Of a stretch of DNA of 64,000 bases, positions 21,045 through 53,720 are shown piece by piece. A model generated the notes under the pieces. The model did no database searches. It saw only the letters and a list, made by a program, of their open reading frames with translations, and was not told where the DNA came from. This stretch comes from a virus. Every line of letters begins with the position of its first letter. Within the stretch, counting starts at the first letter, position 1. The DNA lies in IMG/VR virus record IMGVR_UViG_3300020558_000217, positions 41,600 through 105,599 of that record. One strand, 5' to 3'. The position numbers and the translations under genes were made by a program.

Positions 21045-21629
21045 TTGGCAAGACAAGTAGTAAACGTCGGAAACGACCCAAATGATGGAACTGGAACTCC
21101 TCTTAGAGATGCCATGGTTATCATTAATGATAATTTTTTGGAGCTTTATACTAATCCGGTTGTGAATACTTCAATAACAGTCGGCAATTCTTCAGTAAAC
21201 ACTGTTGTGAACTCTACATCTATAGTTTTCGGTAATAACTCTTCTGTCATTAGGATTGGAAACACTTCAATCAATGCTATCGCCAACAGTTCAGGATTCT
21301 TTACAGGGAATGGAACTGTCACAGCAAATTCTATCAGTGTTTCCTCTAATACTATAAATGTTGGATCGTTCACAGCTGCAGCTAATGGGTACACATTTTT
21401 ACCAAACGGTTTCAAATTAAATTATGGTTATGTATTTTGTAATTCTAGCGTAGGCAATGCTACTTTTTCGTCAGCGTTTGCGACAGCGTGTTATGTAGTT
21501 ACGGCCACTTCTAATACAGCAGCAGTTACATATGAACCTGCTGTAGTCGGAACTAATACTACCGTGGCTATTATCAGAACATCAAATACAACAGCCGTAA
21601 ACGTTTATTATATGGCTATAGGAAGATAA
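21045..21629 (+). CDS. gp9/gp10-like N-terminal anchor fused to a short fibre domain
   Basis: QVVNVG..PNDGTGTPLRDAM..INDNF.ELY anchor motif; C-terminal GYTFLPNGFKLNYG fibre-type domain; TTG start. Confidence 0.7.
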   Translation: MARQVVNVGNDPNDGTGTPLRDAMVIINDNFLELYTNPVVNTSITVGNSSVNTVVNSTSIVFGNNSSVIRIGNTSINAIANSSGFFTGNGTVTANSISVSSNTINVGSFTAAANGYTFLPNGFKLNYGYVFCNSSVGNATFSSAFATACYVVTATSNTAAVTYEPAVVGTNTTVAIIRTSNTTAVNVYYMAIGR

Positions 21630-21638
21630 GGCGAATAA

Positions 21639-23174
21639 ATGACAGGAGTATTACAACCTTCTTATAGAAAGGCTCTAATTGATGAAATGTTTGATAACAT
21701 AAGATCAAACACTTCATATTATTATGCAGTCGCCTCTAATCCTATATTAAGAGTTGGGCCCCTTCCTAATACTACCCCAGACGACTATAATACTAAATTT
21801 GAAACTGATTGGTTAATGTTATTTGGTAAAAAATTATCAATAACCAATTTTGCTCCATTAGTTGATAATAATCTATGGGCGAATGGTTTTGTCTACAAAA
21901 TGTATGATAATAACGATGTAGATTTATATTCAAACAATAAATTTTATGTTATAAGTCCTCCAGAATTTGATGGTGGAACTTATAACATCTTTAAATGTAT
22001 GGACAATGCCAATAATTCTCCTTCTACAGTAAAACCAGCAATAGTACAAGTAACTTCTTTTCAAACTGATGATGGTTATGTTTGGAGATATGTAACTTCT
22101 ATTCCATATAGACTTTATAAAATGTTTGCTACAGACACATATGCACCAGTTTATGCAAACAGTGTTACTACTTTATATGCTAATCAATACTGCGGCGTCG
22201 AAAAGGTAGTCATTACTAATACTGGCTCTGGATACGTAGGATACCATGATGGAACTATCTTATCAGCTAACAGCACAGTTATTCAGGTAGGCAATACAGC
22301 AAGTAATGCTTCGGGTATCTATAACAACAGCGCAATTTATATCTATAATGTCACTTTAACAACTTCTCAAATATTTCAAATATCAGATTATGTATCTAAC
22401 AGCGTTGGAAAGTGGGTGCTTTTGAATGGAGAGGCTAATACTACAAATATTATCCCAGAAGCTACTCAATATAAAATTTCACCAAGAGTTGTTTTTACTA
22501 CAGATGGCGGTACACAGCCAGTAGCATATAGCGTTGTTAATACTACTACTAATTCTATTAGTAATATAGTTATGCTTGATATCGGCGCTGATATATCATG
22601 GGCAAACGTTTCTATAGTATCCGCTGTTGGTTCTGGTGCGAATGTATATGCTATAGTTCCGCCACCAGGCGGTCACGGTTCTGACCCAGTCTCAGAATTG
22701 AATGTAAAGGCATTGGGCGTTAATTTTCATTTTGCCAACAGCGAAGGTAATACAGTATCTGACGATTTATTATATAACAAAATTGGTATAATTAAAAACC
22801 CTTACGGTCTACATGCTAATGGCGCTAAAAGTAATACCGCTTACATATCTACAACGTTTAGTCAAACATTAGACGCTAATTTATTGAATCCAGTATTATT
22901 TACTGTTGGTGATAGAATCTATGGAAATACTAGCAATGCTTATGGTATAGTGGCCTTTGCTAATACATCTAGGATAAAAGTAGTAGGCGATAAAACTTTT
23001 GTTAATGGAGAATTTGTATTTTCTAGCGATTCAGTTTTGAGTTCAGAAATTGATATTATTGATAACGGTAGTATTTACGTTAAAGACGTAAAACCATTAT
23101 ATGTCCAAGATATAAATAACGTAAATAGGTCTAATTCTCAAACAGAATCTTTTAAGCTGATCATTGAGATTTAA
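21639..23174 (+). CDS. 8: baseplate wedge gp8
   Basis: W..G.VY.MYD, YNIFKCMDN..NSPSTVKP, TDDGYVWRY, PPGGHGSDPV.EL, RSNSQTESFKLIIE. Confidence 0.85.
   Translation: MTGVLQPSYRKALIDEMFDNIRSNTSYYYAVASNPILRVGPLPNTTPDDYNTKFETDWLMLFGKKLSITNFAPLVDNNLWANGFVYKMYDNNDVDLYSNNKFYVISPPEFDGGTYNIFKCMDNANNSPSTVKPAIVQVTSFQTDDGYVWRYVTSIPYRLYKMFATDTYAPVYANSVTTLYANQYCGVEKVVITNTGSGYVGYHDGTILSANSTVIQVGNTASNASGIYNNSAIYIYNVTLTTSQIFQISDYVSNSVGKWVLLNGEANTTNIIPEATQYKISPRVVFTTDGGTQPVAYSVVNTTTNSISNIVMLDIGADISWANVSIVSAVGSGANVYAIVPPPGGHGSDPVSELNVKALGVNFHFANSEGNTVSDDLLYNKIGIIKNPYGLHANGAKSNTAYISTTFSQTLDANLLNPVLFTVGDRIYGNTSNAYGIVAFANTSRIKVVGDKTFVNGEFVFSSDSVLSSEIDIIDNGSIYVKDVKPLYVQDINNVNRSNSQTESFKLIIEI
23111..23118 (+). promoter_or_regulatory. 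T4-type late promoter
   Basis: Exact TATAAATA upstream of 23190. Confidence 0.55.
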
Positions 23175-23189: not shown

Positions 23190-26100
23190 ATGTCATTAGA
23201 TATAGATTTAAACGTTGCTCCTTACTACGATGACTATAACGAAAATAAAAATTATCATAGAATTCTTTTTAGACCATCAGTAGCGGTGCAAGCAAGAGAA
23301 TTAACTCAGCTTCAAACAATTCTTCAAAAACAGATAGAGCGTTTTGGAAATTGGGCATTTAGGAGCGGAGATATAGTATCTGGTTGTAATATCTCTGATA
23401 TTCCATCTCTTTCATATGTAAGACTTATGGATTTCGCTTCTAATGGATCAGCTAATACTGCAACATTAGATGTCACAGAATATATTAATGCAGTCGCTAC
23501 TAGCGTAACTAGTAATCTAAGAGCAAAAGTTTTATATGCTAATGCAGGTTTTAGTACCAATTATCCTGATACAAATATTTTATATTTAAGATATCTTAAT
23601 ACTGGAACTGGAGGGGAAAAAGTATTCTCTAATGGTGAACTCCTTACCTTTGTTCAAGTTTCAGAAGCAGGAAATACAGATTTAGCTAATGTATATTCTT
23701 GGGCTAATACTCTAGCTAATACTGTAACAACTGGAAATGCTCATGGTGTTACTGTTTCTGAAGGTATCATTTTTATCAATGGCAATTTCGTAAGAGTAGA
23801 GAACGAAACTTTCGGATTAGTTAATAATTTTGGAACTTATGCCGGCAATAACGTCATAGGGTTCGAATTAGTTGAACAAATTATTACTGAAACACAAGAC
23901 AACACTTTGTTGGATAATGCTCTAGGTTATTCTAACGAAAATGCGCCAGGAGCTCATCGTCTAAAAGTTTCGCCAATCATACTTTCTTTGACCGAAGAAC
24001 AAGCGGCGCTAACCGAGAAATTCAATCCGATTGCTTCATACAATTATGGCACTCTGGTAATCAAATACTCAGAATCTTCTAATTTGTATTCTATAGTAGG
24101 CGATGTTATTGCTAAAAGAACTTATGAAGAATCTGGGAATTATGTAGTAAATCCTTTTGCTGTTGATACAGTAACAAATGTTTTGGACAACAACGTTGAT
24201 ATAGCGCCTTCTTCTGCTAATAATGTTCTTGCTAGAGTAAGCGCAGGAATTGGTTATTCTCAGGGTAAAAGAGTTGAGCTTCTTAAAACAGCATATATCG
24301 ATATGCGTCGTGGCGTAGATACACAGACATTAAGTTCTCAACAGATCAGTTTCAATTATGGCAGTTATTTTATTTTAAATGAAGTATCAGGAACTTTTGA
24401 ATTTAATAAATCACAAACTGTTACTTTGTATGACAAACCACAACAGTCAGTAACTAATAGAACTTATGCTGGCACATCGCCTACGGGTAATAATATCGGA
24501 ACAGCAACAGTAAAATGTTATAGTTTTAATTCTGGTGTACCAGGAAGCGCATCTGCAACTTATTTGCTTCATATATTCAACATATCTCTAAATGCAGGGT
24601 ATAACAGTACTCAAATAAAATCTGTTTATTATAATGGTTCTAAAAAAGGAGTTGCTGATGTTTATTCTGTAGGATTGTTAGAAGATCAGTTCAAAAGACA
24701 ACTTTATTCTTTTGGTTTTTCTGGAATAAAAAACATTAGAGATCAAAGTAATAACGTCCAGACTAATTATATTTACAGAAATAAAGCCTCTGGAACTATG
24801 ACTACCACAGGTAATGCGACTATAACATTAACTTATTCTGCGCCTGGAGGCACAGATATACTTCCTTATGGTATAGGTATACTATCAGATGCTACTGCTT
24901 CTGAGTTTACTGTGGTTGCTACTGCTAATGTTGATTCTGCGGTATTAACAGGCACAGTCAGCGTAAATACAACATCAGTTAACGTTGTAGGAACTTCAAC
25001 AACGTTCACCAATAGATTTTATGTTGGAGACAACATAAAGGTAGGCACTGATATAAGAACAGTTATTTCAGTGTCAAATGCTACGTTTTTGACTGTCGAT
25101 GCTCCATTTGGTGCGACTAACGCTTCTGCGAATTATTACAAATCTTACATTAGTGGTAAAAACATTCCAATTTCTAGAACCTTCAGTTCTGGTCCTTCAA
25201 GTTTTATACAGGTAACAAACAGTACATCATTTACTATAAGTTCAGGTCAAATTCCTAGTTCATCTTTGAGTGTTGACATATTTTATAATACCCAAAGAAA
25301 TGTTGCATTACCCGCTAAAAAGGTAATCAAGAGAGATGTGTTTGTTAAAATTAACACAGCTTCTAATCCAAAAGGACCATGGTGTTTAGGATTTAGCGAT
25401 ATTTTTAAAGTAAATAAAATTTACGGATCTTCAAATGGAACTTATACAACAAACGGTGTAGATTTAACTACTAGCTTTACTTATGATACAGGTCAAAGAG
25501 ACACTCATTACGATTTGGGTTATTTGTATTCTAAGGGCTCATATAGTTCATCATCCTTCCCTAATATTTTAGTTCAACTTGACTATTTTGCTGTAAATAC
25601 TGCACCAGGAGTAGGCTTCTTTTCAGTAGAATCTTATCCCGTCGATGATGCAAATACTGCAAACACTAATGCGATACAGACCAAAGATATTCCACTTTAT
25701 GTTGACGAAAATGGCGCTAAGTTACCTCTTAGAGATTTCATAGATTTCAGAACTCCTTGTGCAATCACAGCTAACGACACAGGTACAGTTGATACATCTA
25801 ATTCTACTCAAGTTACTACAGCTATAAGTTATGCATCAGTCAATCCTGCTTCGACTTTGACTTTAAGCACCGGCGATGCTACATCAGGTTTGAACGTCCC
25901 TGCTTATGGTAAAAATCTAGAAGCGGATTATACTAGATACCTACCTAGAAAAGATTTAATCCTAATAACTCCAGATAATGTTCTTAAAGTTAAAGAAGGC
26001 GTTTCTAGCCAGAGTCCACAAACTCCTCTATGGCCAGATAATGCTATGGTTCTTTCTGTATTGAATATACCACCATATCCTTCTCTTTCTTCAGATCAAC

Positions 26101-27029
26101 TTGATTCGTTTTATCCTATAAATCAAAACTCTAAAAATTTGATTAGAGATACATCAACAGCAATATCTGGAAGTATAGTTAGTAACCGTAGATATACTAT
26201 GAAAGATATTGGTACTCTAGACCAAAGAATTACTAATTTAGAATATTATACGCAATTAACTCTGTTAGAAAAAGCTGCTAAGGATTTGTCAGTAACAGAC
26301 GCAAATGGTCTTGATAGATTCAAAAACGGAATTTTCGTAGATCCTTTTTCTGATTTTTCTCTTGGGGATGTTTCCAGCACAGAGTATTCTATAGCTATTG
26401 ATTCAGCCAAAGGAGTGGCAAGGCCAAGAATCATAAGAGAAGTTTTTAATATTAATTTTAATAGTTCTAGTTCTATAAACACAAGAAAAACAGGCAGATT
26501 AATTACCATCGATTATGTCGAAGTACCATTTATTCAACAATATTATGCTACTAAGTATCGTAGTTCTGCTCTTGTTGCATACGCTTGGAATGGAACTCTA
26601 TTATTAATTCCACCATTCGATAATAATAGCGATATTCATAATACTGGTTCTATAAATATTACTATAGATAACACCAAACCTTGGAAAGATTTCGCAGCTA
26701 GTCCTTTTGGCTCTTCTTATGGAGAATGGAGAACAACTACTACTACAACCTCTGATACAGTTATAACTGGAACGCAGAATATAATTAATAGAGATATAGG
26801 ATCATTGGGCGTTGCAGGAGCTGGTAGAGAAATTGCTGGCCCTAGAAGATTTAATGTCGGTTCAGGATCTTGGAATGGCACCGTTGATCTGTTGACAGAA
26901 TCTGGTAGAGAATTAGCTTTGTCATTGGCGGCACAAGAATTGGGTGTTAACGTAGACGTCATCAGAGGTCATCTAACTGTGGTGTACGATGAGGGTATAC
27001 CAGGCTATGAAAGAACATTCAATTTTTAA
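23190..27029 (+). CDS. VrlC/DUF4815-like large virion structural protein, N-terminal part
   Basis: DLNVAPYYDDY..KNYHRILFRP..AVQARELTQLQTILQ, APGAHRLK, RRYTMKDIG.L..RI.NLEYYT, DRFKNGIFVDPF. Confidence 0.85.
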   Translation: MSLDIDLNVAPYYDDYNENKNYHRILFRPSVAVQARELTQLQTILQKQIERFGNWAFRSGDIVSGCNISDIPSLSYVRLMDFASNGSANTATLDVTEYINAVATSVTSNLRAKVLYANAGFSTNYPDTNILYLRYLNTGTGGEKVFSNGELLTFVQVSEAGNTDLANVYSWANTLANTVTTGNAHGVTVSEGIIFINGNFVRVENETFGLVNNFGTYAGNNVIGFELVEQIITETQDNTLLDNALGYSNENAPGAHRLKVSPIILSLTEEQAALTEKFNPIASYNYGTLVIKYSESSNLYSIVGDVIAKRTYEESGNYVVNPFAVDTVTNVLDNNVDIAPSSANNVLARVSAGIGYSQGKRVELLKTAYIDMRRGVDTQTLSSQQISFNYGSYFILNEVSGTFEFNKSQTVTLYDKPQQSVTNRTYAGTSPTGNNIGTATVKCYSFNSGVPGSASATYLLHIFNISLNAGYNSTQIKSVYYNGSKKGVADVYSVGLLEDQFKRQLYSFGFSGIKNIRDQSNNVQTNYIYRNKASGTMTTTGNATITLTYSAPGGTDILPYGIGILSDATASEFTVVATANVDSAVLTGTVSVNTTSVNVVGTSTTFTNRFYVGDNIKVGTDIRTVISVSNATFLTVDAPFGATNASANYYKSYISGKNIPISRTFSSGPSSFIQVTNSTSFTISSGQIPSSSLSVDIFYNTQRNVALPAKKVIKRDVFVKINTASNPKGPWCLGFSDIFKVNKIYGSSNGTYTTNGVDLTTSFTYDTGQRDTHYDLGYLYSKGSYSSSSFPNILVQLDYFAVNTAPGVGFFSVESYPVDDANTANTNAIQTKDIPLYVDENGAKLPLRDFIDFRTPCAITANDTGTVDTSNSTQVTTAISYASVNPASTLTLSTGDATSGLNVPAYGKNLEADYTRYLPRKDLILITPDNVLKVKEGVSSQSPQTPLWPDNAMVLSVLNIPPYPSLSSDQLDSFYPINQNSKNLIRDTSTAISGSIVSNRRYTMKDIGTLDQRITNLEYYTQLTLLEKAAKDLSVTDANGLDRFKNGIFVDPFSDFSLGDVSSTEYSIAIDSAKGVARPRIIREVFNINFNSSSSINTRKTGRLITIDYVEVPFIQQYYATKYRSSALVAYAWNGTLLLIPPFDNNSDIHNTGSINITIDNTKPWKDFAASPFGSSYGEWRTTTTTTSDTVITGTQNIINRDIGSLGVAGAGREIAGPRRFNVGSGSWNGTVDLLTESGRELALSLAAQELGVNVDVIRGHLTVVYDEGIPGYERTFNF

Positions 27030-27051
27030 TGAATTGATCTAGGAGATAAAA

Positions 27052-29757
27052 TTGGCAGCAACTAGTACAACCACTACCACTTCAATAAATAATTCTGTAA
27101 GATCAGGCACGCAACTAGTAGTAGATTCTATTTCTAGTACTCAAACGGTTGGTTCTTTTGCCACTGATATTTCATTACAACCATATATAAACAGCCGAAT
27201 TATTTCTTTCTTAGCGTTTAATATGAGACCTAATGAAAGAATGCATATATTTTTCGATAGTATTAACGTTGATGAATATTGCGCTCCAGCAGTGATTGAC
27301 GCCAATAACAAATACGTATTACCTGCATCACTAGATAGTTCAGATTCAACTCAAATTGCTAAAAATGGTGATTGGGGTACACCAATATTTTCTGATTCTT
27401 TAGGTGTAGTAGCAGGGCAATTTTATATTCCTGCTGGTAAATTTAAAACTGGAGACAGGCTTGTTCAAATTACAGATGTAGACAGTTTAGTACTAGGAGG
27501 CTCTGCCTTTACTACTATGTCTTCTGCATATTTTACAGCGTCAAATCTTAATGTTACTAAACAAGCAATAACTTTGACTACTGTAAACCCTGAATTGAGA
27601 TCTATTCCTATTGAAGAATCAGTAGTAACCACGTCTACAAATGTTGTTATCAGAGAATTACCAGACATAATTAATGTAAGAGCTAATGCTTGGGAACCTA
27701 TAGCACAAGCGTTGACCATAAACACACCTCAAAACGAATCTGGCATTTTTGCAACTTCTTTAGAACTTTATTTTAAACAGAAAGCGCAAACCTCTGAACA
27801 CGGCGTGACAGTTTACCTGTGCGAGATAGATAACGGTTATCCTAATGGTAACGCTGTTCTTCCTTTTTCTAGAGTGCATTTACCATATAGTAATATCAAC
27901 ATAAGCAACACTTCTACAGTTTCTACCAAGTTCACTTTTGAAGCTCCTGTGTTTTTGGCTAATAAAACAACTTATGCATTTGTTGTAAAGCCAGACGCAA
28001 ATGATCCAGATTATTTTGTCTGGAGCGCAAATCTAGGCGACATCGACGTATCAACTGGATTTCAAGTTTCCAGCCAGCCAGCCATAGGAACAGCTTTTTA
28101 TGGAGCTACTGAAACACAATGGACAGCTCTTCAGACAGAATATATTAAGTTCAAACTTAACAGAGCAAGTTTTCAGTATAATTCTGCTAATGCGGTTTTT
28201 AATAATTCTAATACTGAATATTTGACTGTTTTCAATTTAGGTTATAGTAATACTTCTGTAGGTATAGTACCAGGAGATATAGTTTTTAACTCGACCAATT
28301 CTTTGTCTAACTCTTCTGGAGGAACAGTTAATACTTCCATTAGAGCAACAGTTAATTATTATGATAGCGTTAGAGGAATTTTGTATTGCGAATCATCTAC
28401 TGGTAATTTCGTTTCCAACACTTTTGTGCAAGTTCACAGATTCGCTAACAATTCATTATCTTCTTCGCCGAACAATGTCACTTTAATAGCGTATGCTAAT
28501 ACTTCTTCTCTTTATAATCCTGGCGTTAATGCTCTTGTTCCTCAATTTGCTACTATTTCGCCTCCAGGAACAACTTTGAATTTCACATATACAGGAACTA
28601 ATAACACATATTCTATAGATTCCGAAGAGTATAAAGTTAATCCTGGTTATGAAACTGAATTTTACGATTATGAAAGAATTGTTGTTTCTAAATCAAATGA
28701 AATGGCCTCTATGAGCGGTAACAAATCTGTTACCATAAAAGGGAATATGACTACAGATACTGAATATTTGTCTCCTGTGATCGATACGGCCAGGCAACAA
28801 GAACTAGTAATTAAAAATGATATTGATCCTGTAGAAATCAAATATAATGAATTTTTCAATTCAGGTAACACGAAGTCAAAATATGTATCTCAAATAGTCA
28901 CATTGGCTGACGGTCAAGATGCAGAAGATTTACAAGTTCTATTAACTGCATTCAAGCCTGTGGGTTCATCTATTCAAGTATGGGCTAAATTTCTAAACAA
29001 AGAAGATCCTCGACCTATGAGTCAGCAAACATGGACTCCTTTGTTAAACGATTCAATTGATGTTTATTCTGACCCTAGTAATCCAAACGATTTCAGAGAA
29101 TTGAAGTATTCACTAGGAAGTTATTACAGTAAAATTATAAGAACAGGAACTATTACATGTTCTAATACTAGCAACACTATTGCCGGTAATGGTACTTTGT
29201 TTACAACAGAACTAGAACCTGGATGGTATATTAATACTAAAACTTCTAAGGATATTCTTTTACAAGAAAGAACTAGAAAAATAGTATCTATTACTAATAG
29301 TACTAGTGTTGTATTAGATAGCCCATTTTTTGGTAATTATACCAATGAACCTTATTATCTAGTTGCGCCTCCAACTACTGCTTGGTTGTCTACAGAGGCC
29401 TCTGTTCAATTAACAGGAAACGTTAGCACATATACTACAAACAACAGCATAGTTGGTAACGGAACTTTGTTCGCAACTGAGTTACTGCCAGGTAATATAA
29501 TTAATGTTGCTGGTGATTCTCAAACAATACTTTCTATCACTAATTCAACATTTTTGACAGTAGGCACGCCATGGTCGTCAAACAATTCAGGAGCTAATGC
29601 TTATGTTATAAGTGCTCCAGGCGTAACTTATCTTAATGAAAATTTGAATCTATATTCTTCGTTCAATAGATTTCAATTAAAAATTATACTTCAATCTAAT
29701 GACACTTCTAAGGTTCCGATTATGGATGATCTTAGAGTTCTAGCTTTGCAGATGTGA
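27052..29757 (+). CDS. VrlC/DUF4815-like large virion protein, C-terminal part
   Basis: PYINSRII.F.AFNMRPN, EPIAQAL, T.FTFEAPVFL, SPVID, KYVS..VTL, VPIMDDLRVLAL; AGGAG RBS, TTG start. Confidence 0.8.
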   Translation: MAATSTTTTTSINNSVRSGTQLVVDSISSTQTVGSFATDISLQPYINSRIISFLAFNMRPNERMHIFFDSINVDEYCAPAVIDANNKYVLPASLDSSDSTQIAKNGDWGTPIFSDSLGVVAGQFYIPAGKFKTGDRLVQITDVDSLVLGGSAFTTMSSAYFTASNLNVTKQAITLTTVNPELRSIPIEESVVTTSTNVVIRELPDIINVRANAWEPIAQALTINTPQNESGIFATSLELYFKQKAQTSEHGVTVYLCEIDNGYPNGNAVLPFSRVHLPYSNINISNTSTVSTKFTFEAPVFLANKTTYAFVVKPDANDPDYFVWSANLGDIDVSTGFQVSSQPAIGTAFYGATETQWTALQTEYIKFKLNRASFQYNSANAVFNNSNTEYLTVFNLGYSNTSVGIVPGDIVFNSTNSLSNSSGGTVNTSIRATVNYYDSVRGILYCESSTGNFVSNTFVQVHRFANNSLSSSPNNVTLIAYANTSSLYNPGVNALVPQFATISPPGTTLNFTYTGTNNTYSIDSEEYKVNPGYETEFYDYERIVVSKSNEMASMSGNKSVTIKGNMTTDTEYLSPVIDTARQQELVIKNDIDPVEIKYNEFFNSGNTKSKYVSQIVTLADGQDAEDLQVLLTAFKPVGSSIQVWAKFLNKEDPRPMSQQTWTPLLNDSIDVYSDPSNPNDFRELKYSLGSYYSKIIRTGTITCSNTSNTIAGNGTLFTTELEPGWYINTKTSKDILLQERTRKIVSITNSTSVVLDSPFFGNYTNEPYYLVAPPTTAWLSTEASVQLTGNVSTYTTNNSIVGNGTLFATELLPGNIINVAGDSQTILSITNSTFLTVGTPWSSNNSGANAYVISAPGVTYLNENLNLYSSFNRFQLKIILQSNDTSKVPIMDDLRVLALQM

Positions 29758-33372: not shown

Positions 33373-33374
33373 AA

Positions 33375-33650: not shown

Positions 33651-33653
33651 AAA

Positions 33654-33661
33654 TATAAATA
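33654..33661 (+). promoter_or_regulatory. T4-type late promoter
   Basis: Exact intergenic TATAAATA before the AGGAG RBS of 33686. Confidence 0.75.
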
Positions 33662-33685
33662 TATAAAACAGGAGCAGTATTTTAA

Positions 33686-35659: not shown

Positions 35660-35684
35660 TTTTCTTTGACAAAGGAATTATACT

Positions 35685-41194: not shown

Positions 41195-41206
41195 TAGAGG
41201 AATAAA

Positions 41207-41860
41207 ATGACTGATTACGTTCTTGTAGAAAACAAACAAATAATTCATCTTGGTCCTATGGGTTGGAAGCCAAGAATGTTTCAATCTGAATTGAACGATC
41301 TTGAAGTAGATTTTACTGTTCCTACAGCAGAACCCGGATACATTCAGATCAATGAAAACTTTGAGATTATGCCTGTGAGTTTAGATACTCCAACGCATAA
41401 TCCATTGTTTGAAGAACTGGCAGGTCCATTTTGGACGTATGAAAATAATACTGCTATTGGTCATTACACTGTGCATGACGGTAATATAGATTCTATCAAA
41501 GGCAATTTAAAAAACATCGTCGCTGCTCTAAGATATAATAAAGAACAAACTCCGTTCAAATACACCATTCAAGGAACAGAAATTACTGTTGATGCGTCAA
41601 GAGAAAACAGAAATATCTTTGTTCAGAAATATCAATTTATGACTGACGCTGAAACTGTTGATTGGAAGTTTCCAGAAACATGGCTCACACTAACTAAGGC
41701 AGAACTCGGCGAATTAGTTGTGGCTGGTGCTACTCACATTCAGACACAATTTGATTGGGAAAAAGGATATGTTGATAGTATTGAAAGTTCTACAACTATT
41801 GACAATCTAAGAAACATTTATAATGAATTGATACCTCCGCCTAATTACTCAGGGGTGTAG
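41207..41860 (+). CDS. DUF4376-like tail fibre assembly/accessory protein
   Basis: LK..VAALRY.KE....I.G.EI.VD..RE, VDWKF..TWLTLT..EL, HIQ.QFDWE. Confidence 0.6.
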   Translation: MTDYVLVENKQIIHLGPMGWKPRMFQSELNDLEVDFTVPTAEPGYIQINENFEIMPVSLDTPTHNPLFEELAGPFWTYENNTAIGHYTVHDGNIDSIKGNLKNIVAALRYNKEQTPFKYTIQGTEITVDASRENRNIFVQKYQFMTDAETVDWKFPETWLTLTKAELGELVVAGATHIQTQFDWEKGYVDSIESSTTIDNLRNIYNELIPPPNYSGV

Positions 41861-41862
41861 TA

Positions 41863-44289: not shown

Positions 44290-44317
44290 ATAGTCTATAT
44301 TAGATTATGAGGTCGTT

Positions 44318-45745: not shown

Positions 45746-46475
45746 AACTTCTGGTGTATATAACTTTTGGAACTCTGAAAGATATATCAGTAAAGATAAG
45801 GGTCTAATCACTAGAACCTGTATTAAAAGTCTTGCCGCTTCTATCGCTGCATCTCAAGTAAGGCCAATCATATCCATTCACGATGATAACTCTGACGATT
45901 ATACTCTTAACTCTATACACGAATCATTTCATGAATATGGATTAAAGTATGAGTTATATCACACAGAACCACAACAGAACTTTATATCGCAGTATGAATG
46001 GACTATAGAACAAGATTTTGATTTTGTTTATAACATAGAAGATGATTACCTACATTATCCTGCTGCCATACATGATATGGTTGATATGATTGATTGTATG
46101 AATCGGCTAAAACCTTATGACTATGCCATGTATCCATTCAACAATCCACACAGATACCAAAGTTTCGCTGCTTTGTATCCCTCATATATTGTAAAAGGAA
46201 CCTACCAGTATTGGCGTTCGCTATTGCATTCAACTCATACCTTTATGTGTTCTAAGAAGTGTTTTGTGGATAATATAGATATAATGAAAGACCAAGCATA
46301 CACTTGGCATGTTGATGCTGCCGTTGAGGATGAAAGCATCAATAAAGTTTGGAGAAACCAGGAAACAATATTATTCTGTCCAATGAACTCTCTGGCGTTT
46401 CATATGACAGACGTTACACAAAAGCCTGACTTTGATGATTGGCAGACATTATGGAGTTACTATGAAACACGGTAA
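45717..46475 (+). CDS. GT-A (GT2-like) glycosyltransferase
   Basis: IHDDNSDD and VYNIEDDYLH motifs. Confidence 0.7.
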   Translation: MKLNLAIPIRTSGVYNFWNSERYISKDKGLITRTCIKSLAASIAASQVRPIISIHDDNSDDYTLNSIHESFHEYGLKYELYHTEPQQNFISQYEWTIEQDFDFVYNIEDDYLHYPAAIHDMVDMIDCMNRLKPYDYAMYPFNNPHRYQSFAALYPSYIVKGTYQYWRSLLHSTHTFMCSKKCFVDNIDIMKDQAYTWHVDAAVEDESINKVWRNQETILFCPMNSLAFHMTDVTQKPDFDDWQTLWSYYETR

Positions 46476-47301
46476 GACAGCGGTATATACTATTCTCAAG
46501 AATGAAAAGCAGTATATCGAAAAGTGGTTATATTACGCCGATCCTTTTGATTACAAGGTTTTACTTGACACCGGATCAGCTGATGGTTCATGGGAAATGT
46601 TGCAAGAGGCAGCAACAAAAGATCCAAAACTAATCATTGAACAAAAAACATTTACGCCTTGGCATTTCTCTAATGCTCGCAATCATAACATGACAATGAT
46701 TCCGAATGATGTTATTTGGTGTCTTTCGCCAGACTTAGACGAATACTATTCTATCAATACACATGATCAAATCGAAAAGGTTATTGATCAGAATCCTAAT
46801 GCGACTTCTATTACTTCTGATAGGTTGGATATCTACTCACATCATGTAAAGGTCGGACCACCATTTCTACTACCTACTAACAAAATTCATCTCAAGGATT
46901 ATTACAACTGGAAACAGCCGGTGTATGAATACATCAACTATATTGGGCCAGAAGGTTATGATGTTGAAGTTTATGATCCCTTGATTTGCCTTATTCACGA
47001 TCAGGATTTTCGTAAGAAAGAACGATCAGAATTATACATCAAACTTATGGAAGACGAATACGCTGTCAATCCCACAAACACTTGGGTTCTATGGTTTCTA
47101 ACATATCACTACTATAAGTCAAGGCAAATAGACAAATACATTCCCGCTGCTTGCGATTATATTACTTATCATGACAACATGTATGATAATAACTATAAGG
47201 GACTTTTGAAGGATCTAACCAACTTATATTTCTTTGATAAAGATGTTACACCAGAGCAGAAAGAACAGATCAAATCAGTAATCAAGGGCAAGTCAATATG
47301 A
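46462..47301 (+). CDS. GT2 glycosyltransferase (SunS-like) with helical C-terminus
   Basis: VYTILKNEKQYI, LLDTGSADGS, FSNARN, DLDE motif; start revised to ATG 46462 after GGAG. Confidence 0.82.
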   Translation: MKHGKTAVYTILKNEKQYIEKWLYYADPFDYKVLLDTGSADGSWEMLQEAATKDPKLIIEQKTFTPWHFSNARNHNMTMIPNDVIWCLSPDLDEYYSINTHDQIEKVIDQNPNATSITSDRLDIYSHHVKVGPPFLLPTNKIHLKDYYNWKQPVYEYINYIGPEGYDVEVYDPLICLIHDQDFRKKERSELYIKLMEDEYAVNPTNTWVLWFLTYHYYKSRQIDKYIPAACDYITYHDNMYDNNYKGLLKDLTNLYFFDKDVTPEQKEQIKSVIKGKSI

Positions 47302-47966
47302 ATAATTTTAGATGGATAATTGAAAACCCTAACGATACTATTCAAAGTTCTTTAAAAGCAGGTCATTTTCACGAACAACGTGAAATGGAGATTATGAAAG
47401 AGTATTGTCCAAAGGGAGCGCATATACTGGACATTGGCGCTAATGTTGGTAATCATTCAGTGTATTTTAGTAAGTTCTTTGATGCTGAAATAATCTATGC
47501 TATCGAACCATTGCCAGTGGCATACAAGATGTTGTTAGCCAATCTGTGTTTAAACTACTGTCATAATGTTAATGTTGATTATGTCGGCGTAGCATTAGGT
47601 CATATGGAAACTCAAGGATTTCCGATGGAGATTTATCCTGACAATCTAGGATCAACCAGATTGTTTCATGAAGATAAAACCGATTTACCATTTCAGAAGT
47701 TTGATCCAGTCAATATCATTCCAGGTGATGTTCTATTTGCTGATAAAAGAGTTGATTTTATCAAGATGGATATTGAAGGAATGGAGATGGTTGCTCTTAT
47801 GGGATTAAAAGAAACCATCGCCAGAAATAGACCTAATATGTTTGTTGAAGTCAGTATTGAAAACGTAGAAGATTTTCACCAGTGGATGGACGAAAATAAC
47901 TATAAAGTTGTTTGGAATGAGATAGAACCTAGAATTTTTGCTTCATATATTATCATTCCTCAGTAA
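47298..47966 (+). CDS. FkbM-family SAM methyltransferase
   Basis: ILDIGANVGNHSVYF, AIEP, VDFIKMDIEGME...RPNMFVE. Confidence 0.9.
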   Translation: MNNFRWIIENPNDTIQSSLKAGHFHEQREMEIMKEYCPKGAHILDIGANVGNHSVYFSKFFDAEIIYAIEPLPVAYKMLLANLCLNYCHNVNVDYVGVALGHMETQGFPMEIYPDNLGSTRLFHEDKTDLPFQKFDPVNIIPGDVLFADKRVDFIKMDIEGMEMVALMGLKETIARNRPNMFVEVSIENVEDFHQWMDENNYKVVWNEIEPRIFASYIIIPQ

Positions 47967-48743
47967 ATATTCTTCTATGGAAAGAAACTTATGATCTATA
48001 AAATGATTCAATGAGCATGTGAAGTATTGATACTTATTCTCCAGATGTTTTGGAAAGGGAATGCACTCAATTGTAGCGCATTCTTTTTCAGCAACTAATT
48101 GAGCCACCCTTTCAAACGACCTAGCAACTCCTGTGCCGAGATCGTAAATACCAGAAGGTTTATCATAAAACATACAATCAATAACATCTTCTACCCAAAT
48201 AAAGTCTCGCATACATGCGTTAGATTTTTCGAATAGTTTAATTGTTCCTGTTTCTCTTGCTTGTTTGGTGAATTTATAAACTGGACTTGCTTGGTCGCCT
48301 TTGTGGCTTTCGTGTTTGCCAAAAACATTAAAGAATCTATAACCTTGAATTTTAGAAAACTTATCTATATTATCTTCTACAAACCTATCAATAGTTGCTT
48401 TTGATAGAGCGTAATAATTCAAAGGGTTTATTTCTCTTCTATAATTTGTATTACCATACACTGCAGCAGACGAAGCGTATTTTACAGGAATTTGATAGTC
48501 TATTGCATTATTAAGTAGTTTGATAGTATAGTCTATGTTATACTTGTGTATTTTATTAATATCAGTTTCAGTAGTGTCTGTAATAGCTCCAAGATGCCAA
48601 ATTTGCTTTATTTCTTCCCAATTTATACCCTCGTATAAATCGTCAAAACAATATTGTTTTTCTGAATAATAGATTCCTCCTTGTGGAAATCTTTGAAGTA
48701 AATGTTGACCAATAAATCCGTCAGTCCCTGTTATTAAGATCAT
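47943..48743 (-). CDS. hldD: ADP-L-glycero-D-manno-heptose-6-epimerase
   Basis: ILITGTDGFIG, HLGAITDTTE, YASSAAVYG, PLNYYALSK, RFFNVFG..E.HKG.QAS, RDFIWVED, IPFP.HL..KYQ.FT. Confidence 0.9.
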   Translation of the reverse strand: MILITGTDGFIGQHLLQRFPQGGIYYSEKQYCFDDLYEGINWEEIKQIWHLGAITDTTETDINKIHKYNIDYTIKLLNNAIDYQIPVKYASSAAVYGNTNYRREINPLNYYALSKATIDRFVEDNIDKFSKIQGYRFFNVFGKHESHKGDQASPVYKFTKQARETGTIKLFEKSNACMRDFIWVEDVIDCMFYDKPSGIYDLGTGVARSFERVAQLVAEKECATIECIPFPKHLENKYQYFTCSLNHFIDHKFLSIEEYLLRNDNI

Positions 48744-49032
48744 TGAAAAAATCCTCTGAATTTATCGCCTTGTCGTCAATCCAAACATCATATGATGGTT
48801 TATTGAAATTAAGGGAAGTATATTTAACGCCCCATTTTTTAAACTGTTCAATAGTCAAATCGCGCCAATCTTTGCCCGAACTCATTCCTCTTGCAGTCCA
48901 GTAATGTATTTCATAACCAACATCATACAAACTGTTAAGAGTCTCAATTCTTTTTTTGATAGGCAATGAATTAGCGTAATCGCTATTTTTTGAAATACAA
49001 ATAGTATTATCAATATCTACCAAATATTTCAT
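48721..49032 (-). CDS. small HAD-family phosphatase
   Basis: DIDNTIC (DxD), YWTARG, KP.YDVWIDDKA. Confidence 0.82.
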   Translation of the reverse strand: MKYLVDIDNTICISKNSDYANSLPIKKRIETLNSLYDVGYEIHYWTARGMSSGKDWRDLTIEQFKKWGVKYTSLNFNKPSYDVWIDDKAINSEDFFNDLNNRD

Positions 49033-49382
49033 TTTTGACTGTCTCCTGGCATTATTCTGAAATCATCGTTATCATAATGTGTAGTTGAGATTTCGAATAC
49101 AACAGAATCATCTTCAAGAGCTTCTAATTGATGTGGTTCTCCAGGTTCGTTTGTCCAAGTATCGCCTTCTTTTAAAATATTGTGTTGAATCGAAGCATCT
49201 TTAGTTTCTATCCAATGTATTTTAAATTTTCCTTTTTGAACATAAAACGTTTCATGTTTTTTTAAATGAAAATGCATAGATCCTTTAGAGCCAGCTTTAT
49301 CATATACTAATAACTTACCACAATATTTGTCGTTGTTTTCAATTATGAGTTCTCTACCCCATCCTTTATTGACAATCTGCAT
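49029..49382 (-). CDS. cupin-fold sugar isomerase-like protein
   Basis: KGWGRE, YCGKLL, SMHFH..KHETFYV, PH.LEALED, FEIST. Confidence 0.8.
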   Translation of the reverse strand: MQIVNKGWGRELIIENNDKYCGKLLVYDKAGSKGSMHFHLKKHETFYVQKGKFKIHWIETKDASIQHNILKEGDTWTNEPGEPHQLEALEDDSVVFEISTTHYDNDDFRIMPGDSQK

Positions 49383-50520
49383 TTAAATGCTCCAAAGTTT
49401 TTGTAGTAGAGTAGCCCTTAACAAATGGTATTATTACGACCTTTGTTAAATCGTTACCTACAACTTCTTCAGGTTTATAGTCTCCGCCCTTTGTAATTAT
49501 ATCTGGCTTCAATTTTTTTATTAATTCATAAGGAGTATCTTCGTTAAAAATAATAACTTCATCGACACAATCTAGAGCTTCTAGAACTGCTTTTCTGTCT
49601 TTCTGATTGTTTATAGGTCGTTGTTCGCCTTTTAATCTTTTGATTGATTCGTCTGAATTCAAACCCACTATCAATTTATATCCAAGTTTTCTAGACTCTT
49701 TTAGATATTCTATGTGGCCTCTATGTAGAATATCAAAACAACCATTAGTGAATACTACAGAGTTTTTAGCAATATTTTCTTTTGATAAAACATATGTTCC
49801 GAATTTAGTAACTGAAATACTGGCCAATCTCACAGCCTTTGAACAAGCATCATAAAGGTTGTTTCCGATACTAAGATAGTGAGTCATAGCTGCGATGAAT
49901 ACATCTCCTGCGCCAGTAACATCAGAAACTGGATGTTTGTCTGTTGATATTTCTCCTTCGAAATCGTCAGAGGAAATATATACTCCATTCTCTCCCTTTG
50001 TGACTACAATAGATCCTATGTTGAATAATTTTCGAAGCTGAAAAGGCGTATTACCGAATCCATATTCTTCAAGTTCTTTTTGGTTCAATTTTATTATACT
50101 TGAATTTTTATAATTGTCAATAGGTTTTTTGGGATCTACTATAACTTTAGAACCTTTTTTAATAAAATTATCAACTATCAATTGGCTGTGATGTAAGAAT
50201 CCTTTGTTATAATCAGAAAGAATCACATAATCCGGATTAACTGGAAAATCTATATCTTGATTTGGGATATATTCTTCTTCGTCAGAACGAAACATTATAT
50301 GATTATCGCATACGAATCTGGTCTTTTTGGAATTAAAAGAAGCAAAAATCTCAGTATCCGAACCAAGAGCTTGGAGATTCTCGTAGACATTTCCTGCACC
50401 GCCTGAACGAAATTCAGTAGTTTTAGATTTGAAAACAGGTATGGGAGACTCAGGCGATATACGGTCTACGGTGCCATATATATAAATATCTTCTATGTAA
50501 TCACCAATCACTGCGATCAT
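49366..50520 (-). CDS. hldE: bifunctional heptose-7-phosphate kinase / heptose-1-phosphate nucleotidyltransferase
   Basis: RISPESPIPV, GGAGNV, LSDYNKG, DVTGAGD (PfkB); FTNGCFDILHRGH, GLNSDES, KGGDY, STT; start revised to 50520. Confidence 0.92.
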   Translation of the reverse strand: MIAVIGDYIEDIYIYGTVDRISPESPIPVFKSKTTEFRSGGAGNVYENLQALGSDTEIFASFNSKKTRFVCDNHIMFRSDEEEYIPNQDIDFPVNPDYVILSDYNKGFLHHSQLIVDNFIKKGSKVIVDPKKPIDNYKNSSIIKLNQKELEEYGFGNTPFQLRKLFNIGSIVVTKGENGVYISSDDFEGEISTDKHPVSDVTGAGDVFIAAMTHYLSIGNNLYDACSKAVRLASISVTKFGTYVLSKENIAKNSVVFTNGCFDILHRGHIEYLKESRKLGYKLIVGLNSDESIKRLKGEQRPINNQKDRKAVLEALDCVDEVIIFNEDTPYELIKKLKPDIITKGGDYKPEEVVGNDLTKVVIIPFVKGYSTTKTLEHLNADCQ

Positions 50521-50582: not shown

Positions 50583-53500
50583 ATGGCAGATAAAGATTTC
50601 GTCGTAAAAAATGGTCTAGTTACCGGAACTAATAACGTCACAATAGGTAACTCAGTATATATAGTTGCCAATGGCAACGTCGGCGTTGGCACTGATACCC
50701 CTAATGCTCTGGTGACTATTGTAGGTCCAACCACTAACGCAACTAATTTAAATATTAATGGTTTGACAGTAACTTATAATAGTAACACGTTTAATAATTC
50801 TTCCAATGTAGGCGGAGCTGCTATTGGTGGATATAATGCTAACGGTTTTGGCGTTTTAGGTAGATCTGGTCCTGGTATAGGCGTTATTGGTGTTGCTAAT
50901 GTTGGTGGTGGATATGGCGTTGGAGGTTACGCCCATTCAACGGCAGATTCTTTTTCGGTCGCAGGCTATTTTCTCAACCAAAGTAATGGTATTGGCGTTA
51001 GAGCAGCATCAGTTTCTGGTAGACCGTTCGTTGTTGCTAATGCCACAGTAGATATTATGACTGTGATTTCTAATGGTAATATTGGTATAGGAGATTCTTC
51101 TCCTGCAGTTAGATTAGTTGTTAATGGATCAATCAATGCTACTAGTATAAACGCTGCTTCTTATACAGTTGGAACATCATTCACTGCTAATTCTACTCTA
51201 GTAAACGTTGTTTCTTTATCAGTTTCTACTAACACATCTACCTTCGGTACAGCAGCCCGAATAGTTGCTAACGGCAACATCGGTATAGGAACTGCTACCC
51301 CTAATTCTCTAGTAACTATTGTAGGTCCGGCTGCTAATGCAACCAATTTAGATATTAATGGTTTGACAGTAACTTATAATAGTAACACATTCACTAATTC
51401 GGTAAATACTGGTGCTGCAGCTATTGGTGGATATAATGCTAACGGTTTTGGTGTTCTTGGTAAATCAGGGGCTGGTATAGGCGTTATTGGTGTTGCTAAT
51501 GTTGGTGGCGGTCAAGGAGTTGCAGGTTACGCCCATTCAACGGCAGATTCTTCTTCAATTGCAGGATATTTCTTTAATCAAAGTAATGGTACTGGAGTCT
51601 ATGCTAGATCTTTTGGCGGTAGACCATTCGTTGCTGCTAGTAATACTGCAGAATATATGAGCATTTCAGCTAACGGTAATATTGGTATAGGAGATTCAAC
51701 CCCTGCAGTTAGATTAGTTGTTAATGGATCAATCAATGCTACTAGTATAAACGCAGTTTCTCATACAGTTGGAACATCATTCACTGCCAATTCTACTCTA
51801 GTAAACGCTGTTTCGCTAGTAGTGTCAACTAACACTTCTACTTTTGGCACAGCAGCCCGAATAGTTGCCAATGGTAACATTGGCGTTGGTACTGCTACTC
51901 CTGGTGAAAAAATTACTGTCATTAGTACCGATAGTACAGGGGCTGCGGGATTTCAAACTTTATCTGGAACTGCGACAGCTCTGGGAGCTGCAGCTAATGC
52001 TGGCGTTGGAGCTTATATCCAATCTAGAACTGGTAGGCCATTAGTTGTTGCTAATAATACTACAGAATTTTTCCAAGTTGTTGCTAATGGCAACGTCGGC
52101 GTTGGCACTGCTACCCCTAATTCTCTAGTAACTATTGTAGGCCCAACCGCTAATGCTACTAACCTAGATATTAATGGTCTAACAGTTACCTATAATAGTA
52201 ACACATTCACCAGTTCTTCTAATGTAGGCGGAGCTGCTATTGGTGGGTATAACGCCAATGGTTTTGCTGTTCTTGGTAGATCTAGCGCTGGTATAGGTAT
52301 TGTTGGAGTTGCTAACTCTGGTAGCGGTATTGCTATTGCAGGTTATGCTCATGCAACAACTAATTCTTCTGCGCATGCAGGTTTTTTCTTGAATTCAAGT
52401 AATGGAATTGGCGTTAGAGCGGCGGTCTCAACAGGTGGTAGACCTTTCGTTGCTTCTAATGCTACTGTAGAATTTATGTCTGTTGAAGCTAATGGCAACA
52501 TTGGTTTCGGCAATTCATCGCCTAGATCTAAATTACATATAACCAGAAGTTCGGGCGCCAGCGCCGCTGGCGAAATATATTTGGATGAAGGTTTATATTG
52601 GTCCATGTTGAACAGTCGGTCGACCGTTGGCGCTTGGAATCCATTAGTACAAACTAATGATCATACTTTAATATATTCTGATGGTTCGGCTGATACTGGC
52701 GCTTTGGTCATTGGACCATGGTCTTCTGATAACAAAGGTATGCGTATCGCTAGTAATGGTAGCATTGGTATTGGTACTGCTACTCCTGGCGAAAGAATTA
52801 CTGTAATTAGCGCCGATGGTAGAGGAGCTGGATTTTTTCTATCCAATACAGGTAATGGTTTGAGTAGCAAAACTGAAAATGGTTTTGCTGGAATTATTGG
52901 TGTATCTAACTCTAGTTCATCATCTGTCGCTATTGCTGGTTACGCTAATACTGGATATGGTGGTTATTTTCAAACTTTCTTTGGGACGCAGACAGCTCTA
53001 GCAGCTGTAGCTAATGCTGGAGTTGCAGTTTACGCTCAATCCGGAACTGGTAGACCATTAGTTGTTGCTAATAATACTGTAGAATTTATGTCTGTTCAAG
53101 CTAATGGCGCTGTTTTATTTGCTGGCACTCATCATAATATATCCAGTCTCGGTGGAGTTTTTAGGACTGGCGCTGGCGATTATGGTGTTAGAATTTATCC
53201 AGGTGGCGGTAGTGATTCGAATACTGCTATATTACAATTCACAAACGCTGCTCAAAATACACAAACAGCCCAAATCGCAGTAAATTCTGCAGGTCTTTTT
53301 GTGGGTACTTCTGTTAGCACCTCTGTTTATTTTGTAGCCGGTGGTTCAGTAAAGGCCACATTAGATCCAAGTGGTAATTTCGTCGCCAATGGTAATATTA
53401 CTGCATTTGGCGCGACTTCCGACGAAAGATTGAAAGAAAATATTACACCATTTTCAAACACACTAGATAAAGTAAAAAGACTTCAAGGCGTTACTTATAA

Positions 53501-53720
53501 TTGGAAAAAAGGAACCGCTGAACGTGATTTTGCTGGTATCAATAATGATATTGGTTTGATTGCACAGAACGTCCAAGAAGTATTTCCAGATCTAGTTCGT
53601 GAAAGCGAAGACGGTTATCTTTCTTTGCGCGATAGAGGTTTGTTTGCAATTCTAATCGAAGCAATCAAAGAACAACAAAATCAAATTGATGAACTTAAAA
53701 AAATGTTGGAGAATAAATAA
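50583..53720 (+). CDS. long tail fibre with S74 chaperone
   Basis: MADKDFVVKNGL anchor; repeated NGN(V/I)G(I/V)GT..P; C-terminal SDERLKENI...GLIAQ.VQEVFP.LV...LIEAIKE. Confidence 0.9.
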   Translation: MADKDFVVKNGLVTGTNNVTIGNSVYIVANGNVGVGTDTPNALVTIVGPTTNATNLNINGLTVTYNSNTFNNSSNVGGAAIGGYNANGFGVLGRSGPGIGVIGVANVGGGYGVGGYAHSTADSFSVAGYFLNQSNGIGVRAASVSGRPFVVANATVDIMTVISNGNIGIGDSSPAVRLVVNGSINATSINAASYTVGTSFTANSTLVNVVSLSVSTNTSTFGTAARIVANGNIGIGTATPNSLVTIVGPAANATNLDINGLTVTYNSNTFTNSVNTGAAAIGGYNANGFGVLGKSGAGIGVIGVANVGGGQGVAGYAHSTADSSSIAGYFFNQSNGTGVYARSFGGRPFVAASNTAEYMSISANGNIGIGDSTPAVRLVVNGSINATSINAVSHTVGTSFTANSTLVNAVSLVVSTNTSTFGTAARIVANGNIGVGTATPGEKITVISTDSTGAAGFQTLSGTATALGAAANAGVGAYIQSRTGRPLVVANNTTEFFQVVANGNVGVGTATPNSLVTIVGPTANATNLDINGLTVTYNSNTFTSSSNVGGAAIGGYNANGFAVLGRSSAGIGIVGVANSGSGIAIAGYAHATTNSSAHAGFFLNSSNGIGVRAAVSTGGRPFVASNATVEFMSVEANGNIGFGNSSPRSKLHITRSSGASAAGEIYLDEGLYWSMLNSRSTVGAWNPLVQTNDHTLIYSDGSADTGALVIGPWSSDNKGMRIASNGSIGIGTATPGERITVISADGRGAGFFLSNTGNGLSSKTENGFAGIIGVSNSSSSSVAIAGYANTGYGGYFQTFFGTQTALAAVANAGVAVYAQSGTGRPLVVANNTVEFMSVQANGAVLFAGTHHNISSLGGVFRTGAGDYGVRIYPGGGSDSNTAILQFTNAAQNTQTAQIAVNSAGLFVGTSVSTSVYFVAGGSVKATLDPSGNFVANGNITAFGATSDERLKENITPFSNTLDKVKRLQGVTYNWKKGTAERDFAGINNDIGLIAQNVQEVFPDLVRESEDGYLSLRDRGLFAILIEAIKEQQNQIDELKKMLENK
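50668..52500 (+). repeat. internal 600-bp duplication plus a third partial copy within the fibre gene
   Basis: GCAGTTAGATTAGTTGTTAATGGATCAATCAATGCTACTAGTATAAACGC near 51105 and 51705; third copy of the NGLTVTYNSNTF module starts near 52083. Confidence 0.85.

Follow-up and report, generated by a model that had tools for sequence, protein, structure and literature searches.

We examined a sugar-related gene island in the last 64 kb (the window, whose numbering is used throughout) of the 105.6-kb IMG/VR viral contig IMGVR_UViG_3300020558_000217, which is ~62% complete. We lean, with modest confidence, toward the reading that the island (44318-50520) serves a late, cytoplasmic, probably O-linked decoration of RCC1 propellers and/or fibers of the virion, a reading that draws on fold, synteny, and composition. 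Its core enzyme combines a TPR domain with a GT9-fold glycosyltransferase (GT) domain and is referred to here as TPR-GT9. The island appears to be the local form of a widespread cassette that consists of RCC1 fiber proteins, the soluble TPR-GT9, and variable tailoring enzymes. An earlier, sequence-only reading had listed eight sugar-related genes here, had placed them among fiber genes, and had proposed virion proteins rather than host lipopolysaccharide (LPS) as their substrate. Matches in Pfam, PHROG, TIGR, and NCBIfam together with structure comparison recovered essentially the same gene content, and PHROG and Pfam scans agree that the island lies between fiber genes, within a T4-like fiber/baseplate module. 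The proposed substrate holds up in part: RCC1 synteny, the enzyme architectures, the soluble enzymes, and the apparent late operon speak for virion proteins, but the sequon signal does not serve as a pointer to them, and it is synteny instead that supports a protein acceptor.

The TPR-GT9 enzyme and its RCC1 neighbors

In the AlphaFold model of the 475-aa TPR-GT9 (predicted local distance difference test, pLDDT, 94), a TPR superhelix is followed by a GT-B domain. When compared with known structures, this domain scores highest against GT9-type enzymes (3tov, Z = 18.7; WaaF, 1psw, 18.0; WaaC, 17.0; TibC, 17.0; 231-249 residues aligned), whereas non-GT9 GT-B folds reach only ~11. Whole-chain Foldseek searches gave as best matches OGT and SPINDLY (E ~1e-8), GT41 enzymes with the same TPR-then-GT-B order. 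These matches are driven by the TPR and the generic GT-B fold, and the phage catalytic domain is nearer GT9 (Z = 18.7) than GT41 (Z = 12.9; root-mean-square deviation, rmsd, 18.7 A). In sequence comparisons, TPR matches alone pass in Pfam, a whole-protein profile retrieved only TPR matches from PDB, and the Pfam GT41 family gave no match on the island enzymes at the thresholds used. By its model, the enzyme joins a TPR domain to a GT-B domain of GT9 fold that resembles heptosyltransferases. It carries an EGGIGDE motif in which the Asp D229 is invariant. Because the GT9 likeness holds at the fold level only, the donor sugar is not readable from family membership. A complex prediction for TPR-GT9 with RCC1 propeller c scored 0.01 and carries no weight either way. 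Some relatives of TPR-GT9 are fused to a sulfotransferase domain, giving proteins of ~640-650 aa (P0096, P0120, P0121; L013, L015), and one such fusion is encoded on a 981-kb Patescibacteria contig.

Going by the models, both the TPR + GT-B architecture and the SunS/ThuS-like GT2 architecture encoded downstream would be protein-directed, and by analogy the RCC1/TPR-GT9 pairing resembles TibC-TibA and Aah-AIDA-I. TibC heptosylates the neighboring adhesin TibA; TibC and Aah are O-linking protein transferases of GT9 fold, and TibC-type enzymes are characterized by an iron-finger motif, a beta-hairpin thumb, and dodecamer assembly (PMC4358343). The phage enzyme shares with TibC and Aah (4rap, 4rb4) a GT9-type GT-B fold (Z = 17.0 over 248 residues) and a soluble, cytoplasmic character, and its gene likewise adjoins large repetitive adhesin genes, taking the RCC1 and fiber proteins as putative substrates. 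On the other hand, the phage model has a TPR domain where TibC has an N-terminal beta-barrel, no sequence-level relationship was detected, the neighbors are RCC1 propellers and fibers rather than autotransporters, and most relatives are without heptose genes. Another parallel, by domain architecture (N-terminal TPR and C-terminal GT-B), is FlmG of Caulobacter, whose TPR domain binds flagellin substrates (PMC7591256) and which is also a soluble enzyme of the cytoplasm, upstream of export or assembly. FlmG differs in its donor (pseudaminic acid) and acceptor (flagellin), and no flagellin genes are found beside TPR-GT9.

A profile search for TPR-GT9 relatives returned 497 viral and 111 cellular contigs. 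The gene directly 5' of TPR-GT9 encodes an RCC1 protein in 41 of the 58 distinct viral loci. Seven close relatives (TPR-GT9 60-63% identity) keep one order between the fibers and the neck gene gp13, namely RCC1 genes, a 217-aa protein, TPR-GT9, a small methyltransferase-like open reading frame (ORF), a GT-A, variable tailoring genes, and gp13. The tailoring genes encode, among others, FkbM, GT2 (sometimes methyltransferase-fused), sulfotransferase, adenosine 5'-phosphosulfate (APS) kinase, 2-oxoglutarate (2OG) oxygenase, or GT1. Other common viral neighbors are sulfotransferases (23/140), methyltransferases, tail assembly chaperones, APS kinases, and collagen-like proteins. Two cultured freshwater Synechococcus phages, S-SRM01 (MW015081) and BUCT-ZZ01 (ON615601), also carry a TPR-GT9 homolog after their tail-fiber genes. 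We found no published description of the RCC1 and TPR-GT9 cassette in the literature. A paper on Bdellovibrio MAT fibers mentions neither RCC1 nor fiber glycosylation, and the DNA role given to RCC1 proteins in the phAPEC6 paper is speculation only. The term "RCC1" in an Ostreococcus virus paper denotes culture-collection strain numbers and not the RCC1 protein.

RCC1 is also the top Pfam family around TPR-GT9 in cells, accounting for 19 of 102 immediate neighbors in 30 loci that belong mostly to Bdellovibrionota and Patescibacteria; no flagellin or LPS-core gene occurs among these 102 neighbors. The cellular neighbors are large proteins with 21-27% Ser+Thr. One Bdellovibrionales metagenome-assembled genome has a single RCC1 gene and a single strong TPR-GT9 match, which adjoin each other, and in B. 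bacteriovorus Bd16 the single TPR-GT9 gene lies beside two of ~nine RCC1 genes. RCC1 was matched in just 1 of 14 control genomes. Some of the contigs classed as cellular may be mis-binned phage DNA, although this is unlikely for the complete Bdellovibrio chromosome CP168971.1 and for the 981-kb Patescibacteria contig. The pairing holds at 28-40% identity, both within and outside phage structural modules. Bdellovibrio genomes encode ~nine large Ser/Thr-rich RCC1 proteins (L037, Bd16 2819-2828 kb; L056; L031); some of these genes adjoin TPR-GT9, and one adjoins an S74-chaperone fiber-like gene, which suggests that predator adhesins have the cassette in common with phages.

The slot between the last fiber gene and gp13 is an accessory hotspot common to T4-like aquatic phages. 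In Pelagibacter phage HTVC008M it spans 56402-59681 (L166) and holds four 2OG-Fe(II) oxygenases and a ferrochelatase-like gene on the opposite strand. It could therefore be argued that the RCC1 and enzyme genes travel as one mobile block of the host-recognition region, with the enzymes acting on an unrelated soluble or lipid acceptor. The hotspot itself, the oxygenases of HTVC008M, and the sulfotransferases, APS kinase, and methyltransferases that relatives carry in the slot all fit such co-mobility. However, a phage hotspot by itself hardly accounts for the recurrence of the pairing at the same low identities in cellular genomes outside phage structural modules, and we regard co-mobility without a shared pathway as rather improbable.

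A broader proposal, which we hold tentatively as a real possibility, is that TPR-GT9 and RCC1 together form an undescribed, widespread adhesin-decoration system common to tailed phages (~500 IMG/VR contigs), Patescibacteria, and the predatory Bdellovibrionota. Chemistries based on sugar, sulfate, and methyl groups would be interchangeable and would tune or mask a receptor-binding propeller, and the window phage would add its own ADP-heptose supply, with a cupin replacing the SIS-type isomerase. Tailed phages, Bdellovibrionota predators, and Patescibacteria all attach to other cells.

Partner enzymes, possible sugar supply, and proposed acceptor

The GT-A encoded after TPR-GT9 has an invariant E-D-D motif and invariant D56, D57, and D110, and is found alongside TPR-GT9 in 20 of 82 viral loci. 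The model of the GT2 at 46462-47301 (pLDDT 87.5) comprises a GT-A core plus a C-terminal helical domain and aligns over its full length, helical tail included, with two S-glycosyltransferases that act on glycocin peptides, SunS (7msp, Z = 18.9/271 aa) and ThuS (7msk, Z = 18.6/272 aa); other GT-A enzymes align over the 170-residue core only. The likeness to SunS and ThuS is nevertheless distant, with an rmsd of 6.8-7.4 A and 15-16% identity, and GT-A cores of polysaccharide enzymes come within ~1 Z unit of these scores. No glycocin peptide gene was seen near this GT2. None of the island proteins has a transmembrane segment (no 19-residue window at a Kyte-Doolittle value of 1.6, in a scan that left out a spurious N-terminal extension of HldE), and all island enzymes are predicted to be soluble. 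Unlike the GtrABC seroconversion systems of phages, which glucosylate O-antigen, the island has no counterpart of the Gtr-type membrane partners (GtrA flippase, GtrC, and membrane-anchored GtrB).

The minus-strand HldE-cupin-HAD-HldD cassette is convergent with the transferase genes and overlaps the FkbM gene by 24 bp. The HldD-like protein scores 207.6 bits against TIGR02197, which is under the equivalog cut-off of 274.6 bits, and the HAD phosphatase (48721-49032) has no GmhB equivalog match. A SIS-domain GmhA was not found in the whole 105.6-kb contig. The cupin clusters are virus-only, with affinities to Lyx_isomer (lyxose isomerase) and PMI (mannose-6-phosphate isomerase), and one of them is a nucleotidyltransferase-cupin fusion. 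To judge from these affinities, the cupin may be a stand-in for the SIS-type phosphoheptose isomerase GmhA. The HAD protein is likely a GmhB substitute, and both are candidates for non-orthologous replacement. The same cupin accompanies the heptose cassette in P-TIM68, L135, and L155. Since HldE and HldD are both encoded in the island, ADP-heptose is a plausible donor in the window phage.

A heptose cassette also lies directly 3' of the TPR-GT9 cassette in three other groups of loci; L115-117 have it in the same direction, and in L135 and L155 it is convergent, as in the window. The slot of the nearest relatives is without it, and similar kinase/nucleotidyltransferase/epimerase/cupin cassettes are found in marine cyanomyophages without TPR-GT9. 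A perfect sigma-70 consensus, TTGACA-16-TATAAT (12/12), occurs at 50120-50093(-) inside hldE and on the same strand; it could serve the downstream cupin, HAD, and hldD genes as an internal promoter, but it could also be a chance match, and we treat it as chance.

Under the decoration reading, the minus-strand cassette would convert sedoheptulose-7-P to ADP-heptose. The cupin may come first, as isomerase; the two HldE activities, kinase and adenylyltransferase, would then act before and after the HAD phosphatase, respectively, and the epimerase HldD would act last. Late in infection, the plus-strand operon would co-express fibers, RCC1 propellers, and transferases. The TPR domain would then recruit a virion protein in its folded state; the RCC1 propellers are the likeliest candidates, and the Ser/Thr-rich fibers are possible ones. 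Still in the cytoplasm, the GT9-fold domain would add the first sugar, in this phage probably heptose, with a probable O-linkage to Ser/Thr. The GT-A and the SunS-like GT2 may extend the glycan or add further sugars, FkbM may methylate them, and the decorated protein would then be built into the virion, where the decoration might bear on stability, masking, or receptor binding. Decoration of this general kind is known from mycobacteriophages, whose phage-encoded glycosyltransferases modify the phages' own structural proteins (PMC10527164, as cited in PMC12582341). Those phages, hosts, and enzyme families are different, and RCC1, TPR-GT9, and a sugar-nucleotide pathway are not involved. Freeman et al. 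in 2023 reportedly identified capsid and tail-tube proteins as the targets.

When sugar genes turn up in the fiber clusters of the abundant T4-like phages of aquatic habitats, they are routinely labeled auxiliary "LPS genes" for remodeling of the host. One study describes glycosyltransferase and rfaE genes in a "host recognition cluster" of pelagimyophages and cyanomyophages and reads them as O-chain modification genes (PMC7029224). The window resembles these clusters in having LPS-type sugar genes among the tail-fiber genes of a T4-like aquatic phage, although neither TPR nor RCC1 is mentioned in that study. Applied here, this published reading would have ADP-heptose and the transferases alter the LPS core, O-chain, or exopolysaccharide of the host during infection, either to block superinfection or to prevent progeny from re-adsorbing to the debris of lysed cells. 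It accords with the GT9 fold common to the LPS-core heptosyltransferases WaaC and WaaF, with HldE and HldD as enzymes for LPS-core precursors, and with the O-antigen methylase RfbT being among the relatives of FkbM. Yet membrane-bound partners of Gtr, Wzx, or Wzy type are missing from the island, as are transmembrane segments, the conserved partner is RCC1 rather than an LPS gene, and the genes seem to share an operon with late structural genes. Homologs with RCC1 neighbors also occur on contigs of Patescibacteria, which are not known to have LPS. We consider host envelope modification unlikely.

Phage glycosyltransferases often glycosylate modified DNA bases. Such hypermodification, by which the transferases would protect modified phage bases against restriction, is a common role of these enzymes (cited in PMC7029224), but here it is scarcely credible. 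We give it low weight because no thymidylate-synthase-like hydroxymethylase was found in the 105.6 kb of this ~62% complete contig. In addition, the genes belong to the late structural module and not to the replication genes, and DNA modification leaves the TPR and SunS-like architectures and the RCC1 synteny unexplained.

Several observations weigh against decoration of virion proteins. PF01075 matches TPR-GT9 only at E = 0.015 (15.1 bits against a cut-off of 22) and through one 26-residue motif, and a profile of the catalytic domain retrieved no GT9 chain from PDB by sequence; with the GT9 likeness thus sub-threshold, the enzyme is best described as a distinct family with a GT9-type fold. 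HldE is absent from nine of ten large phage contigs with TPR-GT9, including a complete one of 372 kb, so that heptose is not the family-wide donor unless it is supplied by the host. In a third Bdellovibrio genome, 24-37 kb separate the TPR-GT9 genes from the RCC1 genes. Finally, the host-recognition cluster is hypervariable, and shared mobility rather than a shared pathway could account for the adjacency of RCC1 and TPR-GT9 genes within it. If these phages do decorate their own receptor-binding proteins, host range, adsorption, and virion stability would be read differently, the counting of such auxiliary metabolic genes would change, and there would be a new place to seek protein-glycosylating enzymes with recognizable substrate partners.

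N-X-S/T sequons in fiber proteins

The sequence-only reading had based its choice of substrate on N-X-S/T sequons, proposing cytoplasmic N-glycosylation of Asn across fibers, baseplate, and sheath as a glycan shield. Fiber-like proteins are indeed dense in this motif, with 2.5-6.6 per 100 aa; for the enzymes the figure is 0-0.9. Relative to an expectation from residue shuffles, 274 sequons were observed where 193 were expected in the pooled proteins (observed/expected, O/E, 1.42), the fiber-like proteins reaching O/E 1.4-1.8. The excess has z = 2-3 in most fibers (1.5-3.0 in the trio at 36223-40041), and the reverse motif is not enriched in fibers relative to shuffles. The strongest case is the repeat fiber at 29981-33043, with 67 sequons against 37 expected (z = 6). 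These sequons sit in a tandem repeat, however, and are thus copies and not independent events. In the 23-aa repeat, 12 of 13 copies preserve the N-x-S/T site with a variable x, as N-glycosylation would predict, but eight adjoining columns are kept equally well, and a second Asn is in a sequon in just 6 of 13 copies. The fiber excess is real but modest and largely driven by tandem repeats.

Enrichment does not extend to baseplate and sheath, as had been claimed: the sheath (z = 1.3), the 1106-aa wedge protein (z = -1.4), and the DUF4815 protein (z = -0.3) show none, nor do the three RCC1 proteins of the window (O/E 0.67-1.12). Pooled O/E values are 1.28 in HTVC008M, 1.07 in S-PM2, and 0.85 in phiM12. 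The four distal fibers of HTVC008M reach 1.47-1.70, an excess equal to that of the window, although no glycosyltransferase is annotated in the structural region of this phage and no TPR-GT9 homolog was found in it. Conversely, Ser/Thr-rich fiber-like proteins next to TPR-GT9 elsewhere show no excess (O/E 1.02 in 82 viral loci and 0.99 in 80 cellular loci).

Orthologous repeat fibers keep 6.6-7.1 sequons per 100 aa, which could be taken as a sign of selection for glycosylation. In a position-by-position comparison of orthologous fibers from related contigs (60-80% identity), the retained fraction was 0.72-0.76 for sequon Asn and 0.71 for other Asn; for Ser/Thr at +2 it was 0.72-0.75 and for other Ser/Thr 0.70-0.72. 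Whole sequons were retained at 0.60, compared with 0.52-0.63 for the control motifs N[ST], N..[ST], and the reverse. Sequons are thus conserved no better than control motifs, no GT41/HMW1C-type (NGT) enzyme was detected at the thresholds used, and the lead enzyme has a GT9 fold whose known protein transferases are O-linking (PMC4358343). N-glycosylation of the sequons is very improbable, and the best reading of their excess is that beta-repeat fibers rich in Asn and Thr have it as a matter of course. RCC1 proteins adjoining TPR-GT9, when pooled, have an N-X-S/T O/E of 1.5-1.6, because Asn often precedes a shared motif (giving N-R-S). This motif is a near-invariant [RK]-S-S-P-V-Q in each blade of the phage RCC1 propellers, with both serines invariant in several of them (40031-44289).

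Gene map and transcription

PHROG and Pfam scans show a structural module of T4-like myovirus type across the window (Table 1). The large terminase subunit, TerL, shares 50-57% identity with its counterparts in Sinorhizobium phages phiM12/phiN3, Pelagibacter phage HTVC008M, Methylophilales phage Melnitz, and cyanophage S-PM2. The island had no megablast match among phage records. A tblastn search with the repeat fiber was also without a match, probably as a result of low-complexity masking.

Table 1. Features of the window, in order of position (+ and -, strand)
Feature	Position	Strand	Evidence or remark
gp6-like and other wedge proteins	15887-23174		
Split DUF4815/VrlC-like protein	23190-29757		
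Fiber protein series	29981-40041		
Repeat fiber protein P0001, 1020 aa, 23-aa tandem repeat	29981-33043	+	Highest sequon density
T4-type late-promoter-like TATAAATA	36137-36144	+	79 nt 5' of fiber gene 36223; motif match only
Three fiber-like proteins, 379/408/475 aa, the last with S74-chaperone-like C-terminus	36223-40041	+	PHROG tail-fiber families
RCC1 propeller a, seven blades, short N-terminal docking-like segment; candidate acceptor	40031-41194	+	phrog_7220, 2.3e-67
217-aa tail-fiber-related protein accompanying RCC1 genes	41207-41860	+	phrog_10508; kept in L002, L003, L005, L006
RCC1 propellers b and c, 411/396 aa; c (43099-44289) directly 5' of TPR-GT9 gene	41863-44289	+	PF25390, 6e-55 and 1.6e-68
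TPR (~1-200) and GT9-fold GT-B (~212-475) transferase, 475 aa; conserved core enzyme	44318-45745	+	
Divergent GT-A (GT2-like) transferase	45717-46475	+	PF00535 in homologs
GT2 with C-terminal helical domain, SunS/ThuS-like	46462-47301	+	ORF from 46432; likely start Met11
FkbM-family S-adenosylmethionine (SAM) methyltransferase	47298-47966	+	PF05050, 1e-15; TIGR01444, 1.6e-25
Compact HldD-like ADP-heptose 6-epimerase	47943-48743	-	TIGR02197, 2.4e-61
103-aa HAD phosphatase, capless	48721-49032	-	TIGR01689, 4.5e-10; phrog_1238, 1.1e-27
117-aa cupin, virus-only family	49029-49382	-	Sugar-isomerase affinities
Bifunctional HldE: heptose-7-P kinase and heptose-1-P adenylyltransferase	49366-50520	-	NF008454, 3.6e-88; ATG start 50520
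1045-aa tail fiber with Peptidase_S74 chaperone; not in slot of closest relatives	50583-53720	+	TATAAATA upstream at 50481
Neck proteins, TerL, sheath, tube, portal	3' of 53720		

The genes at 36223-47966 are co-directional and separated by short gaps or joined by overlapping start and stop codons, with overlaps from TPR-GT9 through FkbM, and no strong terminator was found between 36223 and 47966. A single operon is likely to run from the late-promoter-like motif at 36137 through the RCC1 genes and transferases to 47966. Among nine plus-strand copies of this motif, 6 or 7 lie within 100 nt 5' of structural gene starts; its overall count in the window is close to expectation (11 against 10.4), so that only its placement is suggestive. 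A strong terminator-like hairpin (13 pairs and a T-run) is located at 35727-35756(+), 42 nt into the listed ORF 35685-36185, whose true start may therefore lie further downstream. A transcription unit probably ends after the fiber gene at 33686-35659.

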